From the NCBI GenBank assembly GCA_048941285.1, contig JBHLNS010000054.1, forward strand, positions 1 to 19,871: DNA of 19,871 bases, read 5' to 3'. The DNA is from Promethearchaeota archaeon (GTDB lineage: Archaea > Asgardarchaeota > Lokiarchaeia > Sigyniarchaeales > SOKP01). The translations under genes were made by a program, and so were the position numbers. Position 1 is the stretch's first letter; every line of letters starts with the position of its first letter. Below the pieces are notes generated by a model. The model did no database searches and was not told the origin of the DNA. It worked only from the letters and a program-made list of their open reading frames with translations. Below are positions 5,465 to 12,162 of the stretch, one piece after another.

Positions 5465-8365
5465 TTAAATTTCGATGTAAAGGGCGGGTTTGAAAGGTTT
5501 AGCTTTTGTAGCTTTACTTTTAGGATCGAAATTAGAATTTATTATAATCTTTGAATTTACTCGTTTTTCTATATAAAATTTATATTGTTTTAATAATTCT
5601 CTTTCATTAATTTGGGGAAAATTAGTTTCCCAAATCCTGTCTTTCAATCCATTTTTTATGAAAGAAATTACTTCCTTGTTACTAATTAACCTTTTATTCT
5701 TTTTTAGCTCAGATATTATTTCATTGAAATTATCTTTTTTTAATGATATTAAATTTAAAACTTCATATTTCCATTCAGGTGCTAAATAGATATAGATTTC
5801 TCCAGATTTTTGTGATTTTACAATTTTTCTTATATTGAAAATATCATCAATAATATTTGAGATATAATCAAATTCACCCTCAAGGGTATTATTAATATAT
5901 TGTTTATTAAAATCTCCCCAAACTGCTTTTGATATAAATTCTTCATTTCCAGCAAGTTCCCATAATTCTTCACATAAATGAGGCATTGTTATTGAGAGTA
6001 ATTTTAGCCAATCTTTATAAATCAATTTGAAGACTAATAGAAAATCATCTAAATTCTCAATATCTCTATTAAATTCCTGAATTAGATTAAATATCTCATA
6101 AAATGCAATCTGTAGATATCTCCTTATATTATATTCTTCTAATCCCTTTAGCGCATCAAAAAATTTCTTAATAATTTTAGAGAGTATCACCATTGAATAT
6201 TTAGAGTTAATATTTTCAAATCTGGCTTCAATATTAATTGATTCTCTAATTGTTTTTGACATAAAAGTATAAAATTTAGTTATATGATTTTTCACTGTTT
6301 CTATTTCTTTTTCTCTAAAATCCATATAAACACCAAAATCTGCACCGTGAGATATATAAAACCTAAATAAGTCAGCAGAATATTTTTTTTTTATTTCAGC
6401 TAAAGGAATAAGATTTCCTTTTGATTTACCCATTTTTTGTCCTTCTACATTGACTGGTTCGATTAAAGTGATGACTTTTGGCCAATGTTTTTTTGGAAAA
6501 ATAGCAACATGATGGAATATATAAAAACTCAAATGATTAGATATATGCATTATAGCAGTGTGTCGATGGTCAACAGGGTACCAATAAATAAATTCTTTTT
6601 GGAGTTCTCTCAGTATATTTTCTCCAATATTTGTGTGTTTCGAAAGTTTTTTTAAATCTCCCTTCTCTAAGAATACAAAATTGAAAATTTCTGGAATTAA
6701 TTGTTCTGGTTTAATTTGATATTCTCTGATTTTATGAGATATTGTATAGAAAGCCATATATATAGTCGAATCACTTAGTGATTCTATAATCCACTCCTTA
6801 TCAAAGGGTAATTCGGTACCGAGCCCTCTTTTTCTAGCACACGGCCTCTTTTCAAGCCAATTAAAAATATTTTCAAAATTTAATCGATACTTATTGGGTA
6901 TAATTTTCATATTATTAAGGCATTCAAATGCTTTTTTCTTCCAATTCCCGGCATTAAAATTAAGAAACCATTGATTCTTAAGAATAGATACAATAATTTC
7001 CGCACCGCACTTACATCTTAAATTTCTAGTAACAGGCATATATATTTTATCCGCTTTATTCTCTTCAATTAAATCTAGAGCGACTTTTGTAGCAGCACTG
7101 CTAACGTTCATTCCTTGGTATTTGCCACATTTATCATTAAGTACACCATTATAGAATTCATATTTGTAATTCTCACTTGTTGCCAGGTCCAGTTTCTCCT
7201 CATCTTTTTGAGACTCAACATTATATTTCTCACAGTATATTTTTGCTGGAAAATCTTTGAATCCCTTTATTCCAATAATTTGAATTGGATAAATTAATTC
7301 AATTTCTCTTTCATTCAAATTGAATTTTTTAATTAATTGTGTATCTTTTTGTAAATCAATTAAAGCCATATAATCATAAGGAGCGTGAGCTGGAACGGAA
7401 TAAACAACTCCAGTTGCTGTGAATGTTTCAACAAATTCTCCGGGTAAAATCGGAATTTCTTTGATTCCATAGACGTCTCTAGCTTTTTTACCAATGATTT
7501 CACCCCCTTTAAAATTTTCTGATATTTTAATCTCCTTATTTTGGTTTTCTAATAACTTGGTTGCTTCATTAGAGATAAACCATATTTCTCCATTCACGGT
7601 AGCCTTGACATAATCTCCACTCGGTTTTATCCATATATTTGTTACTCCATATATTGTTTCTGGTCTTAAAGTGGATGCTACAAGAAATCCATCCTCAAAT
7701 GGGAATTTAATGCATATATATTCATTTATATTAAGATCTAATTCATCCCCACTTGCTATGTCATCTTCCCCCACAGCATTTTTGTCTCTAGGACAATATA
7801 AAATAGGATATTCTCCCTTTTCAATATAGCTTTTTTCTTTTAAATGAAAGTATTGCCATTCAATGAATTTATTATAGATCTTGTCTCCCGTAGTAAATTC
7901 TCTTCGCCAATCTAAACTCATCCCCATTGACTTGAAATCTAGTTTAATTGTGTTAGAAAAATAATTTACAATATTCCAAGGATTTACAAAGCCCTTGACA
8001 ATACTATTCACATTTTTCTGATCTTTAGTGTGTAATGATACATATTCTTTCATCCTAGTTATTTGTAGTTTATCGCCTCTTTCTATAGAGGATGAAATCG
8101 CTAAAACTGGAGTCCCAGTAATATGAAATGCCATGGGATATAATACGTTATACCCTTTCGCGCGGTAATATCTGGCAAATATATCTCCATTAATAAAGCT
8201 CCGTCCATGACCTATATGAGTAGGCCCAGAGGCATATGGGTAAGGAGAAGTAATTAGAATTTTCTCTTTATTTTTATCTGGGTTTGCATCGAATATTTTT
8301 GCTTTTTCCCATTTATCTTGCCATTTTTTTTCAATTTCTTGTGGATCATACATATTTTTATACAT
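5465..8365 (-). CDS. leuS: Leucine--tRNA ligase, archaeal/eukaryotic type. Start is probably ATG 8365 (or 8353), not the TTG at 8449 given in the ORF track
   Basis: IEKKWQDKW N-terminus, PYPYASGPTHIGH, CP1 editing motifs TLRPETIYG and ATGVVYSVPAHAPYD, WIIESLSDSTIYMAFYT, KMGKSKGN, C-terminal KAKPFKPALYIE. Confidence 0.96.
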   Translation of the reverse strand: MYKNMYDPQEIEKKWQDKWEKAKIFDANPDKNKEKILITSPYPYASGPTHIGHGRSFINGDIFARYYRAKGYNVLYPMAFHITGTPVLAISSSIERGDKLQITRMKEYVSLHTKDQKNVNSIVKGFVNPWNIVNYFSNTIKLDFKSMGMSLDWRREFTTGDKIYNKFIEWQYFHLKEKSYIEKGEYPILYCPRDKNAVGEDDIASGDELDLNINEYICIKFPFEDGFLVASTLRPETIYGVTNIWIKPSGDYVKATVNGEIWFISNEATKLLENQNKEIKISENFKGGEIIGKKARDVYGIKEIPILPGEFVETFTATGVVYSVPAHAPYDYMALIDLQKDTQLIKKFNLNEREIELIYPIQIIGIKGFKDFPAKIYCEKYNVESQKDEEKLDLATSENYKYEFYNGVLNDKCGKYQGMNVSSAATKVALDLIEENKADKIYMPVTRNLRCKCGAEIIVSILKNQWFLNFNAGNWKKKAFECLNNMKIIPNKYRLNFENIFNWLEKRPCARKRGLGTELPFDKEWIIESLSDSTIYMAFYTISHKIREYQIKPEQLIPEIFNFVFLEKGDLKKLSKHTNIGENILRELQKEFIYWYPVDHRHTAIMHISNHLSFYIFHHVAIFPKKHWPKVITLIEPVNVEGQKMGKSKGNLIPLAEIKKKYSADLFRFYISHGADFGVYMDFREKEIETVKNHITKFYTFMSKTIRESINIEARFENINSKYSMVILSKIIKKFFDALKGLEEYNIRRYLQIAFYEIFNLIQEFNRDIENLDDFLLVFKLIYKDWLKLLSITMPHLCEELWELAGNEEFISKAVWGDFNKQYINNTLEGEFDYISNIIDDIFNIRKIVKSQKSGEIYIYLAPEWKYEVLNLISLKKDNFNEIISELKKNKRLISNKEVISFIKNGLKDRIWETNFPQINERELLKQYKFYIEKRVNSKIIINSNFDPKSKATKAKPFKPALYIEI

Positions 8366-8387
8366 AAGCTTACTTTCTTTCTTTTTT

Positions 8388-8441
8388 TTTAATTGAATTA
8401 TTCCTTGAGTGAGCCAATAATTATGATCTCTTTCAATTAAA
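8388..8441 (-). promoter_or_regulatory. Second stem-loop in the leuS 5' leader (10-bp perfect inverted repeat)
   Basis: mRNA UUUAAUUGAA (8441-8432) is complementary to UUCAAUUAAA (8397-8388) and ends ~22 nt before the leuS ATG. The stem is AU-rich, so a chance match is possible. Confidence 0.35.
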
Positions 8442-8450
8442 TTTACCAAG

Positions 8451-8509
8451 CAAGCGAAAAAATCCGTGGAAAATCAAAAGAAAAAGAGCATAAGGATTTG
8501 TTTCGCTCA
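8451..8509 (-). promoter_or_regulatory. Candidate attenuator stem-loop in the leuS leader
   Basis: mRNA AGCGAAA-C-AAAUCC (8507-8494) pairs with GGAUUU-UUUCGCU (8465-8453): 13 Watson-Crick bp with one bulge. The 28-nt loop is UUAUGCUCUUUUUCUUUUGAUUUUCCAC. The 5' arm overlaps the leader-peptide UGA. Confidence 0.6.
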
Positions 8510-8593
8510 AAATAACAATAAAACTGCGAGTAAATTAACTAATAATGTTTTTTCTATTATATTCATCCTTAACGCAGTCTTATTTGAAATCAT
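8507..8593 (-). CDS. Putative Leu-rich leader peptide of leuS, MISNKTALRMNIIEKTLLVNLLAVLLLF (alternative start ATG 8566 gives 19 aa)
   Basis: Manual translation of the minus strand: ATG 8593 to TGA 8509-8507. It has 8 Leu in 28 codons, 7 of them in the last 12. It lies directly upstream of leuS on the same strand and is followed by a stem-loop with U-tracts. Confidence 0.65.
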   Translation of the reverse strand: MISNKTALRMNIIEKTLLVNLLAVLLLF

Positions 8594-8612
8594 TCTTATA
8601 AAAATATATGTG

Positions 8613-8634
8613 TGTTTATATTAAAATATTTCTA
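8613..8634 (-). promoter_or_regulatory. Putative archaeal BRE/TATA promoter for the leader-peptide/leuS transcript
   Basis: The minus strand reads TAGAAATATTTTAATATAAACA. The TATA-like element is ~22-33 nt upstream of ATG 8593, a spacing that would give a leaderless start at the leader ORF. The AT-rich background lowers specificity. Confidence 0.35.
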
Positions 8635-8775
8635 GGTTTTTACCTTATTTTGTTACTTGTGGATTAATTCCTATTGCGATAACTCGTTCTTAGAAAATAG
8701 TGCAAATTGTTAAATATATCCTCTTATTTCATTTTTTTGATATAATACCTGAACGAAAACGGGGAAAAGGATCTT

Positions 8776-11700
8776 ATGAAAAGAACTATTAAACAAAACC
8801 AAGTTGAAATTGAATCTAAAAGTATCAATAAATTATTACAAATTAGCCTCGATGCGATGAATGAAGCTGTTTTTGTAATTGATTTAAAACATAAAATCCT
8901 CCAATGTAATAAGGCAACTTTAAATATTCTAGGAAAGTCTAATTACCATGATGTCATAGGACATTCTTGTATGGAACTATTACATTGTACTACTGAACCA
9001 GTTGATTGGTGCCCTGTAAGAAGAATGTGGGAAACTGGTAAAAGAGAGGTTAACTTTCAATTATTGAATGGTAAATGGGCTGAAATGTCTGCTGAACCCA
9101 TCTATAATGATAAGGGTGAAATTACTGGAGCAGTTCATATCATCGCTGACATTAACGCCCGCAAAAGAGCAGAAGATGCATTAAAAGAATCAAAACAGCA
9201 ATATCTCATGATTCTAAATTCTTTGAGTGATGCTATGCATGTGGTAGATGAAGATTTAAGAATTATTTTCCAAAATCCTGCAATGAATCAATGGCTAGAA
9301 ATATTAAATTTAAACCCTGATAATATAGGTAAACCAATTTTCGAGGCATTTCCTTTTTTAGATCATTATAAAGTTTATAATGAATATAGCAAAATCTTCA
9401 AAGAAAAGAAACCTTTAAGCACAATTGAAGGTACAAAACTATTTAATCGAATAATATTTACTGAAACTTTAAAAATACCTATTATTAGTGAAGGTCAAGT
9501 AAAACAGATTATAACTATTCTGAGAGACATCACTGATCGGAAGAAATTTGAAGAAAATTTAAAGGCATCTGAAGAAAAATATAAAAACATCATCAATAAT
9601 TTGATGGATATTGTAATAGTAGTAGATTTAAACGGGAACTTCCAATATGTCAGTCCTCAAATTCTTGAGATTACTGGATTTAAACCAGAAGAGATGATTG
9701 GTAAAAATGGATTTAAGTTTATGCACCCTGATGATGTATTAAACGCTGCTGAAGTATTAAGAGAAGTAATGAATAGCAAAGAGAAAATCCACATCAAATA
9801 TCGTATAATCCATAAAGATGGACATTATATCGATGTATCTGCTAGCGGAAGGCTAGTTAATATTGCTGGAGAAGAAAGAATTTTCGTAGTTGTGAAAGAC
9901 ATATCCGACCAAAAGAGAGCAGAACATAAGTTAAAAGAATCAGAAAAAAACTATCGATATTTGATTGAAAATGCATTAGAAGGAGTTTGGGTTATAGATT
10001 CAAATGCACAAACAACTTTAGTTAATCCGAGTATGGCAAAAATATTAGGTTATTCAGTAGATGAGATGATTGGAAAATCTGTTTTATCTTTTATGGATAG
10101 TGAACAAGCAAAAATTACTAAAAAGCACTTAGAAAAAAGGAAAAAAGGTATTTCGGAGGAGAGAGACGCTATTTTTATCCATAAGAATGGAAATTTAGTT
10201 TATTTAAGAATTAAAGCGACCCCAATTTTCAATAGCAATGGTGTCTATGAAGGAACATATGCATTTTTGGCAGATATTACTAACAGTAAGCATGCTGAAG
10301 AAAAATTGAAAGAATCGGAGGATCAATTTAGAACCATTACCGAACAATCATTTATGGGAATTGTAATACTACAAGATGGAGTTTTTAAATATTTGAACGA
10401 ACAAACTGCAAAAATAAATGGATACACCATCGAAGAGATTCAAAATTGGAAGCCGAATGAATTTATAAAGATTATACACCCTGAAGATAGAGAATTTGTT
10501 ATGGAACAGGCTCGAAAAAAACAAACAGGTGATCCAGATGTTATATCTCACTATCAATATAGAGTTATTAAAAAAAATGGGGAAGTAATCTGGCTTGAAA
10601 ATTTTTCAAAAACTATAAACTATGGAGGGAAACCTGCAGATTTTATCATGACAATTGATATTAGCGACAAAATAAAAGCAGAACAAATGTTAAGGGAATC
10701 GGAAGAGAAATATCGATTAATTTCAGAAAATACGGATGATTTAATTGTAGTTTATAATGAAGATGGAATAATAGAATACCTAAATTCTGATACTCATTCA
10801 AGAGTTTTAGGGTATAATACTGATCAATTTTTAGAAAAATCTTTTAGAGACAAATTAGTACATAAAGATGATAGAGCAATAGCAGATAAATCTGGAAGTG
10901 AAGGTTTAGAAAAAGGAAATTTCCAATATCAATTTAGATTAAAACATCAAAATGGCAATTATATCTGGTTTGAGGTCTCCGGTAAAACTTTTAAAGACCA
11001 TTATGGTAATAGAAAAATTTTGTGTGTTTCAAGAAACATCAATGAAAAAAAATTAGCAGAACAGAAAATCAAAGAATCTAAAGAAAATTTCAGAACGATA
11101 GCTGAACAAGCTTTCATTGGGACATTAATCATTCAAGATGACAAAGTGGAGTATGTAAATAATGCTTTGTTACAAATTTTTGACTATTCTTTTGAAGAAG
11201 TCGTTCACTGGAAAAAAGATGATCTAATCAAGCTAATTTACCCGGAAGATTTACAATATTTAAGAGAATATCGCGAAAAATTGCGAAGTGGTGAATCCGA
11301 CATTAAACAGTATTATTCTTATAGAGTATTTACAAAATATGGTAAAATAAAATGGATAGATCAATATTCAAGACCTATTATTTATCGTGAAAAATCTGCG
11401 GAATTAGTCACTATTATGGATATTACTGAAAAGAAGAAGGCTGAAGAAGAATTAAAAAAGTTAAACAGTTTAAAATCTGAACTTCTTAGAAGGACTTCCC
11501 ATGAATTAAAAACACCGCTTGTATCCATAAAAGGTTTTTCTGATCTTTTATTAACTGTACATAAAGATAAATTAGATGATTATGTATTAGCTGCAATTCA
11601 TGAAATAAAACTTGGATGTGAACGATTAGAAAATCTTATTCAAGATATTTTAAAAACATCTGAGTTAGAATCTGAATTAGTTGAACTAAAGAAATCTGAA

Positions 11701-12162
11701 GAGGATTTATCATTCTTGATAAAATTATGCATAAGGGAGTTGCAAGGCTTAATCAGATTAAGGAATCATGAGATTCATTTAAATATCCATGATAAGTTGG
11801 TGACTAGATTTGAACCAGACCAAATCCATCTTGTTTTAAGTAATTTACTCAATAATGCTATAAAATATACCCCTCCAAATGGAAAAATCGAGATTAAATC
11901 GGCTTTTACCGACGATTATGTCCTAATTTCAATAGAGGATAATGGAATTGGAATAACAAGTGAAGAGAAGAAAAGGTTATTCACTCAATTTGGAAAAATT
12001 GAACGATATGGGCAAGGACTTGACATTATTTCTGAGGGTTCTGGATTAGGTTTATTTATAACTAAAAAAATTATTGAATTGCATGGTGGAACAATTAGGG
12101 TTAAGTCAAAGGGGAGGAACAAGGGTTCTACTTTCTATTTTACTCTTCCCTTGATTAAATAA
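8776..12162 (+). CDS. Cytoplasmic multi-PAS sensor histidine kinase (about 7 PAS/PAC repeats + HisKA + HATPase_c)
   Basis: Repeated PAS-PAC junctions (DITDRKKFEENLKASEEKY-like), H-box SHELKTPL, N-box NLLNNAIKYT, G1 DNGIGI and G2 GSGLGL. No transmembrane segment or receiver domain is visible. Confidence 0.95.
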   Translation: MKRTIKQNQVEIESKSINKLLQISLDAMNEAVFVIDLKHKILQCNKATLNILGKSNYHDVIGHSCMELLHCTTEPVDWCPVRRMWETGKREVNFQLLNGKWAEMSAEPIYNDKGEITGAVHIIADINARKRAEDALKESKQQYLMILNSLSDAMHVVDEDLRIIFQNPAMNQWLEILNLNPDNIGKPIFEAFPFLDHYKVYNEYSKIFKEKKPLSTIEGTKLFNRIIFTETLKIPIISEGQVKQIITILRDITDRKKFEENLKASEEKYKNIINNLMDIVIVVDLNGNFQYVSPQILEITGFKPEEMIGKNGFKFMHPDDVLNAAEVLREVMNSKEKIHIKYRIIHKDGHYIDVSASGRLVNIAGEERIFVVVKDISDQKRAEHKLKESEKNYRYLIENALEGVWVIDSNAQTTLVNPSMAKILGYSVDEMIGKSVLSFMDSEQAKITKKHLEKRKKGISEERDAIFIHKNGNLVYLRIKATPIFNSNGVYEGTYAFLADITNSKHAEEKLKESEDQFRTITEQSFMGIVILQDGVFKYLNEQTAKINGYTIEEIQNWKPNEFIKIIHPEDREFVMEQARKKQTGDPDVISHYQYRVIKKNGEVIWLENFSKTINYGGKPADFIMTIDISDKIKAEQMLRESEEKYRLISENTDDLIVVYNEDGIIEYLNSDTHSRVLGYNTDQFLEKSFRDKLVHKDDRAIADKSGSEGLEKGNFQYQFRLKHQNGNYIWFEVSGKTFKDHYGNRKILCVSRNINEKKLAEQKIKESKENFRTIAEQAFIGTLIIQDDKVEYVNNALLQIFDYSFEEVVHWKKDDLIKLIYPEDLQYLREYREKLRSGESDIKQYYSYRVFTKYGKIKWIDQYSRPIIYREKSAELVTIMDITEKKKAEEELKKLNSLKSELLRRTSHELKTPLVSIKGFSDLLLTVHKDKLDDYVLAAIHEIKLGCERLENLIQDILKTSELESELVELKKSEEDLSFLIKLCIRELQGLIRLRNHEIHLNIHDKLVTRFEPDQIHLVLSNLLNNAIKYTPPNGKIEIKSAFTDDYVLISIEDNGIGITSEEKKRLFTQFGKIERYGQGLDIISEGSGLGLFITKKIIELHGGTIRVKSKGRNKGSTFYFTLPLIK

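Follow-up and report, generated by a model that had tools for sequence, protein, structure and literature searches.

In the 19,871-nucleotide (nt) stretch of DNA analysed here (the window; contig JBHLNS010000054.1 of assembly GCA_048941285.1, from a Promethearchaeota archaeon), the interval 8451 to 8575, which an initial annotation had flagged for a pair of RNA helices next to a leader stop codon, forms the 3′ half of a leader, cis-acting and about 175 nt long, ahead of an accessory archaeal-type leuS, the gene for a leucine–tRNA ligase (LeuRS). A frame-conserved reading frame with a codon run matched to the gene, a hairpin fused to its stop codon and a U tract lying in a pseudoknot point to a gauge read by the ribosome, and it is probable that the leader is a ribosome-read leucine gauge of some kind. 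The full chain, in which the leader would read the supply of leucyl-tRNA via the translating ribosome and set the expression of the accessory leuS, we put forward more tentatively, at somewhat less than an even chance. Comparative support, drawn from sequence, covers the upstream open reading frame (uORF), the conservation and covariation of stem-loops SL1 and SL2 and of helix C, the geometry of the leader, and the way in which the peptide tail goes with the class of downstream gene; the output step and the polarity of the leader we infer. The upstream parts of the leader and the gene that it would regulate, the second LeuRS gene of this genome, are the following.

8617 to 8633, minus strand: putative archaeal promoter read from the sequence, with a B recognition element (BRE)-like AGAAATA and a TATA-like TTTTAATATA, −40 to −24 from the uORF AUG.
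8507 to 8593, minus strand: leader uORF of 28 codons from the list of open reading frames (ORFs), MISNKTALRMNIIEKTLLVNLLAVLLLF, with 7 Leu in the last 12 codons and the stop UGA at 8509–8507.
5465 to 8365, minus strand: leuS, archaeal-type leucine–tRNA ligase, 966 amino acids (aa) from the ATG at 8365 (NCBIfam TIGR00395, 940 bits; PRK12300, 1087 bits).

The uORF was found upstream of all 41 orthologous leuS loci, a set with LeuRS N-termini at least 65% identical that gave 35 distinct leaders after six duplicates had been dropped. These 35 share the consensus M(I/N)SNKTALKMNL.EK.SLVDLLAVLLL(S/L), range from 26 to 30 codons with every indel a multiple of 3, and end in TGA (26 leaders), TAA (8) or TAG (1). 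All 35 have 5 to 8 Leu in the last 12 codons, compared to a Leu frequency of 9.9% in the genome, and the leader Leu codons vary synonymously, UUA accounting for 75% of them versus 51% genome-wide. Enrichment in codons for the cognate amino acid, a criterion for attenuators, was seen in the uORF of every orthologue and also in a second LeuRS clade (7, 7 and 7 Leu). The antisense frames of the uORF were not kept open, the best one being stop-free in 6 of the 35 leaders. The uORF has the look of a translated one. Among 65 more distant leuS loci, eight of them bacterial-type, 64 were without the leader; the exception (L022) has a LeuRS N-terminus 45% identical and belongs to a different clade.

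The promoter block AAA.ATTT.AA.A was kept, as was its distance from the ATG, in the 35 orthologues and in other leader classes, with 23 to 24 nt between the end of the BRE/TATA-like block and the AUG in every member. The usual archaeal spacing between promoter and start places the start of the transcript at or near such an AUG, and the spacing seen here therefore implies a leaderless or near-leaderless transcript, which would start at the uORF AUG or adjoin it. At one locus (L047) leuS begins about 25 nt past SL2, leaving no room for a separate promoter; from this and from the promoter geometry we presume that the uORF is translated and that leader and gene are cotranscribed.

Several other reading frames were examined as candidates and rejected. 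Leu-rich uORFs of a similar kind precede 14 of the 2511 long ORFs in the genome, and the 13 other than the leader itself, which stand before genes unrelated to leucine, were taken as chance. A second, overlapping ORF (MSETNPY.LFLL), which begins in the TTGA/ATGA overlap, differs among relatives by 1-nt indels and is under no coding constraint. A Phe-rich uORF before the gene for 3-dehydroquinate synthase II (contig C1 of the source genome, G000, about 230 nt upstream of 70881; L124:1269-1344) was considered as a second amino-acid leader and proved an artefact: its frame is the antisense of the Lys-rich N-terminus encoded by a divergent 216-aa gene, and of 17 other loci searched in the same genus 5 had it.

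The RNA of the leader is organised into the following elements.

8517 to 8584, minus strand: SL1, a long stem-loop around most of the uORF in the minimum free energy (MFE) fold, in which P1 pairs AAUAAGACUGCG (8584–8573) with CGCAGUUUUAUU (8528–8517) and P2 is an apical hairpin (8540–8559).
8494 to 8507, minus strand: 5′ arm of helix A (SL2), AGCGAAACAAAUCC, AGCGAAA(C)AAAUCC, whose first base is the A of the uORF stop UGA.
8466 to 8493, minus strand: pyrimidine-rich loop of SL2, with the near-invariant tract CUCUUUUUCUUUU at 8488–8476; its 5′ part, 8493–8480, is the 5′ strand of helix C.
8453 to 8465, minus strand: 3′ arm of helix A, GGAUUUUUUCGCU; relatives read GGAUUUGUUCGCU.
8435 to 8441, minus strand: nearly invariant A/U block, UUUAAUU, immediately 5′ to the 3′ strand of helix C, either loop 3 of the pseudoknot or a possible second TATA-like element.
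8421 to 8434, minus strand: 3′ strand of helix C, GAAAGAGAUCAUAA, pairing with loop positions 8493–8480 (UUAUGCUCUUUUUC; −9.1 kcal/mol).

SL1 was the MFE structure in the window and in most orthologues, and the 3′ strand of its P1 is the terminal Leu-codon run of the uORF. In the MAFFT alignment of the 35 leaders, on which all pair counts for this set were made, 83–93% of the cells were paired in P1 and 80% in P2, with covariation in both (for example at columns 15/72 and 38/51). Helix A has 13 bp with one bulged C and a free energy of −11.8 kcal/mol taken alone. It lies where the initial annotation had put it, begins within the leader UGA and encloses the pyrimidine-rich loop, and it was conserved over the 35 leaders with 92.9% of cells paired and both sides changed in 6 of 13 pairs; RNAalifold returned it as the sole consensus helix. 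Across 83 distinct family members, in an alignment fitted to the model, 92.8% of cells were paired and 12 of the 13 pairs were compensatory. Considering the structure as a whole, 88.8% of cells were paired in the 35 leaders, with 15 compensatory pairs compared to 7.8 ± 1.5 in shuffled controls (none of 500 reached the observed value), while in the model-fitted alignment of the 83 members 86.4% of cells paired, 32 of 35 pairs were compensatory and all five helices covaried. A cmscan search of 7900–9100 against Rfam, at E values up to 10, gave neither a T-box nor any other family, the only matches being mir-374 and OmrA-B at about 15 bits, which is chance level. Together, these results support the earlier view of a leucine leader, translated in appearance, whose stop codon is fused to a conserved hairpin around a U-rich tract.

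The loop of SL2 has a conserved partner downstream. The two C of the CUCUUUUUCUUUU tract were kept in 34 and 33 of the 35 leaders, and their partner is the G of GAAAGAGA. Helix C has an 8-bp core with 96% of cells paired over the 35 leaders; in its 14-bp version 83.7% of cells were paired and 7 pairs had compensatory changes, a level reached by 6 of 500 shuffles. The purine segment that forms its 3′ strand lies 20 to 25 nt beyond SL2, and the helix covaries between leader classes (GCCCUU/AAGGGC, AAACUCUUUCU/AGAAAGAGUUU and UGACCUUUUUC/GAAAAUGGUCA). Across classes the cognate duplex between loop and downstream segment averaged −11.4 kcal/mol, compared to −8.7 kcal/mol for non-cognate pairs and −5.5 ± 2.3 kcal/mol for shuffled ones, and the cognate pair beat or tied 81% of partners from other classes. 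Family-wide, the SL2 loops are 57% U and 5% G, and a run of at least 5 T was present in 73 of 83 loops versus 54% of composition-matched shuffles. Helix A and helix C have no bases in common, which leads either to an H-type pseudoknot or to helices that fold one after the other. Both helices covary, in separate columns, and SL2 and helix C would form an H-type pseudoknot if they can coexist, the 14 bp of helix C that start directly at the stem being a possible steric obstacle. The unconstrained MFE structure of the 261-nt window leader (z = −2.43) contains helix C and leaves out helix A, because nested folding cannot hold both.

The initial annotation had proposed that the position of the ribosome on the leader selects the fold. 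In nascent RNA extending to nt 145–155 the probability of helix A was 0.98. Folds constrained to mimic the ribosome were computed on nascent RNA up to SL2 plus 5 nt for the 35 leaders. When the leaders were free, helix A had a mean probability of 0.98 and no upstream pairing of the helix B kind was seen (helix B is described below). A ribosome on the terminal Leu codons left helix A at a probability above 0.5 in 29 of 35 leaders, and the B-like pairing exceeded 0.5 in 1 of 35, that of the window. A ribosome at the stop codon gave helix A in 0 of 35 leaders and no B-like pairing, the loss of helix A following from the mask, which covers its 5′ arm. The proposal is borne out for helix A, whose existence is decided by the position of the ribosome (29 of 35 leaders on the Leu codons versus 0 of 35 at the stop, the second value being set by the mask), but not for helix B, which wins in the window alone.

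Helix B was the second of the two helices for which the interval had been flagged, and the two were thought to exclude each other.

8565 to 8575, minus strand: 5′ arm of helix B, a window-specific pairing whose 3′ arm lies at 8488–8497.

In the window, helix B exists as described (10 pairs, −7.6 kcal/mol) and shares the AUCC bases with helix A, but it is not conserved: over the 35 leaders 58.3% of cells were paired, the G-C pair at columns 26/106 was present in 5 of 35, and 88 of 500 shuffles reached its covariation score. The role of helix B as the switch partner of helix A falls with the constrained folds, and mutual exclusion gives way to a different arrangement, since the conserved partner of the loop is the downstream helix C. 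A U6 tract buried in the 3′ arm of helix A is present in the window, where a G-to-U change relative to other leaders both makes the run and weakens the helix, but a run of at least 5 U was found in 4 of 83 family arms. We also tried a pairing of the 2:3 type, between uORF codons 20–23 and the 5′ arm of helix A, and rejected it, as it was 87% paired without covariation and 419 of 500 shuffles reached the observed pairing; a T-box pairing of the UGGN/ACCA type after SL2 was rejected likewise, the segment being unconserved. Among the pairings examined (helix B, the 2:3-like pairing and helix C), there was no conserved antiterminator (2:3) and terminator (3:4) pair sharing a strand. A stable hairpin followed by a U run, the mark of an intrinsic terminator, was not the rule either: besides the scarcity of U runs in the 3′ arm, a run of at least 4 T within 12 nt after the arm was found in 15 of 83 members, in agreement with the earlier remark that the layout is not the classical 3:4 hairpin with a U run.

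A covariance model built from SL1 and SL2 was searched against 151 genomes of the order. The leader was found in 110 of them, 109 of these among the 131 genomes of one Promethearchaeota (Lokiarchaeia-type) family, where ten genera had it, and it was in none (0 of 19) of the genomes sampled from three other families of the order. Copies per genome are often 2 to 4, with up to four matches. To these we added 40 of the lower-scoring matches listed and the second match of the source genome itself, and on a set of 99 loci the model gave 98 matches, 83 of them distinct. A uORF of 20 to 32 codons from the promoter-proximal start was found in all 83 distinct members (79 read automatically and 4 by hand; one has a GUG start), and it ends at the foot of helix A in most leader classes. 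Classes were assigned by tblastn to representatives, which were named by Pfam and NCBIfam, as follows.

LeuRS of the window's type, 48 distinct members: 5 to 8 Leu and 0 to 1 Ile in the last 12 codons of the tail.
LeuRS of a second clade, 3 distinct members: 7, 7 and 7 Leu in the tail.
FrhB/FdhB-like protein of 483 aa with a TrmB domain, 15 distinct members: 3 to 8 Ile in the tail (14 peptides).
Strong Shine–Dalgarno (SD) sequence and an ORF of 40–70 aa facing a convergent class-I aminotransferase, 15 distinct members: tail rich in Val/Leu in 10, without a clear run in 5.
Acyl-CoA dehydrogenase, 1 member: tail VVVVDVVVVLL.
Class without assignment, 1 member.

In the two LeuRS classes, 50 peptides were read automatically (5 to 8 Leu, 0 to 1 Ile) and a reading by hand showed that of L218 to be Leu-rich as well. 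On a constant RNA scaffold, the peptide tail changes according to the gene downstream: Leu before LeuRS, Ile before the FrhB-TrmB protein and Val/Leu elsewhere. The target of the Ile class (L183:538-1989 and 14 homologous loci) has N- and C-terminal FrhB/FdhB domains, a 4Fe-4S motif and a C-terminal TrmB helix-turn-helix.

An nhmmer search of the source genome with the leader returned the leuS copy alone as significant. With the covariance model there was a weak second member in that genome (G000:C75:375-505, locus L203; 35 bits, E = 0.003), with the uORF MSFSQYDTTDYWCGLHSYVKPIFIRSIIKRE. Its leader is followed by GGAGGUGA and an ORF of about 60 aa (…ILEYYQDWDS…) facing a convergent class-I (DapL-like) aminotransferase, and it is among the five of its class without a clear run. 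The same layout, with leader, strong SD, ORF of 40–70 aa and convergent aminotransferase, recurs at L199, L200, L211, L219, L221, L222, L223 and L195. The small ORFs fall into two families, one ending in …AE..I..E.IAW and the other containing EYYQDW. In this layout, transcripts that read through the leader would be antisense to the aminotransferase, and the SD could be masked by a CACCUC lying just upstream of it. At L195, two leader copies of different classes stand in tandem (289-416 and 905-1054), about 600 nt apart, each with its own SD and small ORF.

The source genome (29.7% GC) has two LeuRS genes, the archaeal-type copy in the window and a bacterial-type copy on another contig (G000:C32:123680-126466). 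The 929-aa protein encoded by the latter combines a bacterial-type core (TIGR00396, 963 bits, residues 4–785) with an archaeal-like C-terminal domain (residues 612–928 match leuS_arch/PRK12300), and there is no Leu-rich uORF upstream of it. Of 41 genomes of the order that were searched, most appeared to have the bacterial-type LeuRS, judged by N-terminal matches with open frames of 927–958 aa; within the genus, 18 of 24 other genomes yielded an archaeal-type copy with at least 73% identity. The LeuRS under the leader is therefore the accessory one. On the plus strand of the window, a divergent ORF of 1128 aa (8776–12162) starts 182 nt from the uORF start and appears by eye to encode a long, multi-repeat sensor histidine kinase. 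Over the whole genome, aragorn called 13 tRNA genes, none of them a tRNA-Leu whether introns were allowed or not, a count that suggests that many tRNA genes of this genome are interrupted or unassembled; the idea that the leader mimics tRNA-Leu was dropped with it. Among the sequencing runs listed as containing the locus, 20 were of DNA type and none was of RNA.

In the reading that we favour, the promoter would set the start of the transcript at or next to the AUG and so give a leaderless mRNA, from which the 28-codon uORF would be translated; the 5 to 8 Leu codons among its last 12, mostly UUA, would double as the 3′ strand of SL1. The stop codon would adjoin helix A, and the U/C-rich loop of SL2 would pair with the downstream purine segment (helix C) to give the pseudoknot. 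A ribosome held on the Leu codons would leave SL2 free to fold, while one at the stop codon would cover about 13 nt of the 5′ arm and, with that much of the arm inside it, SL2 could not form. Termination in archaea depends on U-tracts together with aCPSF1/FttA. Under a shortage of Leu-tRNA, SL2 and helix C may fold and hide the U-rich tract, and transcription, or the transcript, would continue into leuS (ON); with Leu-tRNA in ample supply, the ribosome terminating on the uORF would keep the tract single-stranded and the RNA would be ended or cut by U-tract/FttA-type termination (OFF). Induction of a synthetase on shortage of its amino acid is known in bacteria for pheST and for T-box synthetases, and we favour this polarity since it has that precedent for synthetase genes.

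Several observations weigh against this scheme. By the time SL2 or helix C can close, the U tract has already been transcribed; masking therefore cannot stop intrinsic termination there, and its only possible target would be a slower step, factor-dependent or post-transcriptional. In the nested fold of the full window leader, helix A had a probability of 0.0 and helix C was preferred. Base pairing in P1 partly dictates the hydrophobic tail, as the 3′ strand must complement AAUAAUACUGC, and the composition of the peptide is therefore not free of RNA constraint. The association between tail and gene rests on about 4–5 independent leader classes, and one class (tails ...IRSIIKRE and ...IIPLVTVL) has no clear amino-acid run and places its stop inside the 5′ arm. 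Finally, the Val-rich leader stands before an acyl-CoA dehydrogenase, presumably catabolic, for which the same polarity would mean induction on valine shortage, an odd outcome.

The timing problem and the Val-rich leader would both be accommodated by the opposite polarity, arising from physical coupling: a fast ribosome would trail the RNA polymerase and push it through the T5/T4 runs of the loop region, giving ON when Leu-tRNA is plentiful, while a stalled ribosome would leave the polymerase alone on the T tract to terminate, SL2 and helix C acting afterwards, for example on RNA stability. The T runs lie 22–37 nt past the stop (window nt 109–124 versus the stop at nt 85–87), roughly the spacing between P site and active site in collided bacterial expressomes, which fits this explanation; no masking of an already transcribed tract is needed, and the polarity becomes sensible for the acyl-CoA dehydrogenase. 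However, it leaves the strong conservation and covariation of helices A and C unexplained, it would turn a synthetase off on shortage of its own amino acid, the reverse of the known bacterial cases, and such coupling of transcription and translation in this lineage is an assumption; we consider it unlikely. A translational output, in which the ribosome-dependent fold of the leader decides ribosome access to the leuS start, has still less in its favour. The leaderless poly-Cys short ORFs (sORFs) of mycobacteria are reported to work by translational logic (bioRxiv 10.1101/834739), and in the class facing a convergent aminotransferase ('AT_conv') the strong SD (GGAGGUGA) has a complementary CACCUC before it, so that an SD-masking hairpin is possible there. 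Yet leuS in the window has no SD although the genome uses SDs of the GGAGGUGA type, the 60 nt preceding its AUG are rich in A and show little conservation, and no conserved pairing of the leader with the leuS start region turned up in a search that was not systematic; this output seems improbable to us.

Every helix covaries, and the peptide is conserved at its N- and C-terminal ends where these coincide with the two P1 strands and variable across P2 where the RNA pairs covary; with one leader class devoid of an amino-acid run, this agrees with an element that acts as RNA only, the pseudoknot binding a protein (LeuRS or another), a tRNA or a small ligand, and the ORF being a by-product of P1 or an opener of SL1. 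Such an element is hard to square with an ORF kept in 83 of 83 members in DNA of about 30% GC, where a random 28-codon frame is open in an estimated 10% or so of cases, with indels in multiples of 3, with Leu kept through synonymous changes and with a tail that shifts with the gene class on a constant scaffold, and Rfam gave no match; we judge it to be similarly improbable. Less probable again is that the uORF and SL2 make up a separate small transcription unit ending at the U-rich tract, with the leuS promoter in the UUUAAUU block (8435–8441) and an indirect linkage through read-through or interference. The block, which is conserved and contains TTTAAT, is situated some 68 nt upstream of the ATG of leuS and resembles the TTTTAATATA of the upstream promoter, but in L047, where leuS follows SL2 so closely, there is no such block; moreover, the covarying 3′ strand of helix C directly follows the block and is therefore transcribed together with the loop, and the strict association of Leu with LeuRS is left unexplained. 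As for helices A and B competing for the AUCC bases with the ribosome choosing between them, a ribosome on Leu25 of the window gave helix B a probability of 0.83–0.93, but the pairing lacks conservation and covariation over the 35 leaders and wins in one of the 35 constrained folds, and we regard such a switch as very improbable, surviving at most as a peculiarity of this strain.

The leader that we favour as a ribosome-read gauge shares features with several known systems. T-box leaders of Firmicutes synthetase genes include starvation-induced second copies such as thrZ and tyrZ, and here too an accessory synthetase copy would be under a leader that reports the charging of its cognate tRNA; in contrast, a T-box works by direct binding of uncharged tRNA, with no ORF, and no T-box match was found here. 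As in bacterial leader-peptide attenuators (E. coli pheM-pheST; Streptomyces leuS and trpS, for which attenuators were predicted in PMC1262725), a uORF with cognate codons directly precedes a synthetase gene, with conserved RNA structure after the uORF, and the position of the ribosome dictates which structure can form. Unlike those attenuators, the present leader has no conserved antiterminator/terminator pair with shared bases that we could find, its U-rich tract lies inside the hairpin loop with no U run after the hairpin and the loop pairs downstream into a pseudoknot, its uORF is apparently leaderless and lies inside its own stem-loop with the sensing codons at the very end by the stop, and its host is an archaeon with a different termination machinery. 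In the mycobacterial poly-Cys sORFs described in bioRxiv 10.1101/834739, a leaderless sensory sORF is likewise the first cistron and the same design recurs at several loci (the 'ribulon' of those authors), a stalled ribosome there blocking a duplex that conceals the following gene's ribosome-binding site. Whereas that output is an unmasked ribosome-binding site, the conserved downstream parts here are a U-rich tract and a pseudoknot, and we saw no such duplex with the leuS start. The T5-C-T4 tract, the most conserved single-stranded element of the leader, is like the U-tract signals of archaeal aCPSF1 (FttA)-dependent termination (PMC11616081, and works cited in PMC10450193), but known archaeal U-tract sites mark the ends of genes or operons. 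The leader resembles bacterial amino-acid gauges that are read by the ribosome, a kind of control unreported from archaea: a 2021 paper states that no attenuation or antitermination mechanism was known there (PMC8448881), and in a full-text search with subscription journals outside it we found no later report of archaeal attenuation and no description of this leader.

Archaeal gene control is known almost entirely at the level of promoter recruitment. It is conceivable, though again short of an even chance, that the Lokiarchaeia-type family runs leaderless, pseudoknotted leaders tuned to Leu, Ile and Val as a branched-chain amino-acid 'ribulon', with the accessory LeuRS, the regulator-like FrhB-TrmB protein, the small proteins beside the aminotransferase and the acyl-CoA dehydrogenase as its targets, and that this is the first attenuation-type control in Archaea. 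If true, ribosome-read regulation would exist also in archaea, assembled from archaeal parts (leaderless mRNA, a U-tract signal and a pseudoknot), and the leader would offer a defined sequence for testing transcription-translation coupling and FttA-type termination. It would also place such control in the closest prokaryotic relatives of eukaryotes, and would bear on the origin of amino-acid-sensing uORFs in the lineage nearest to them.

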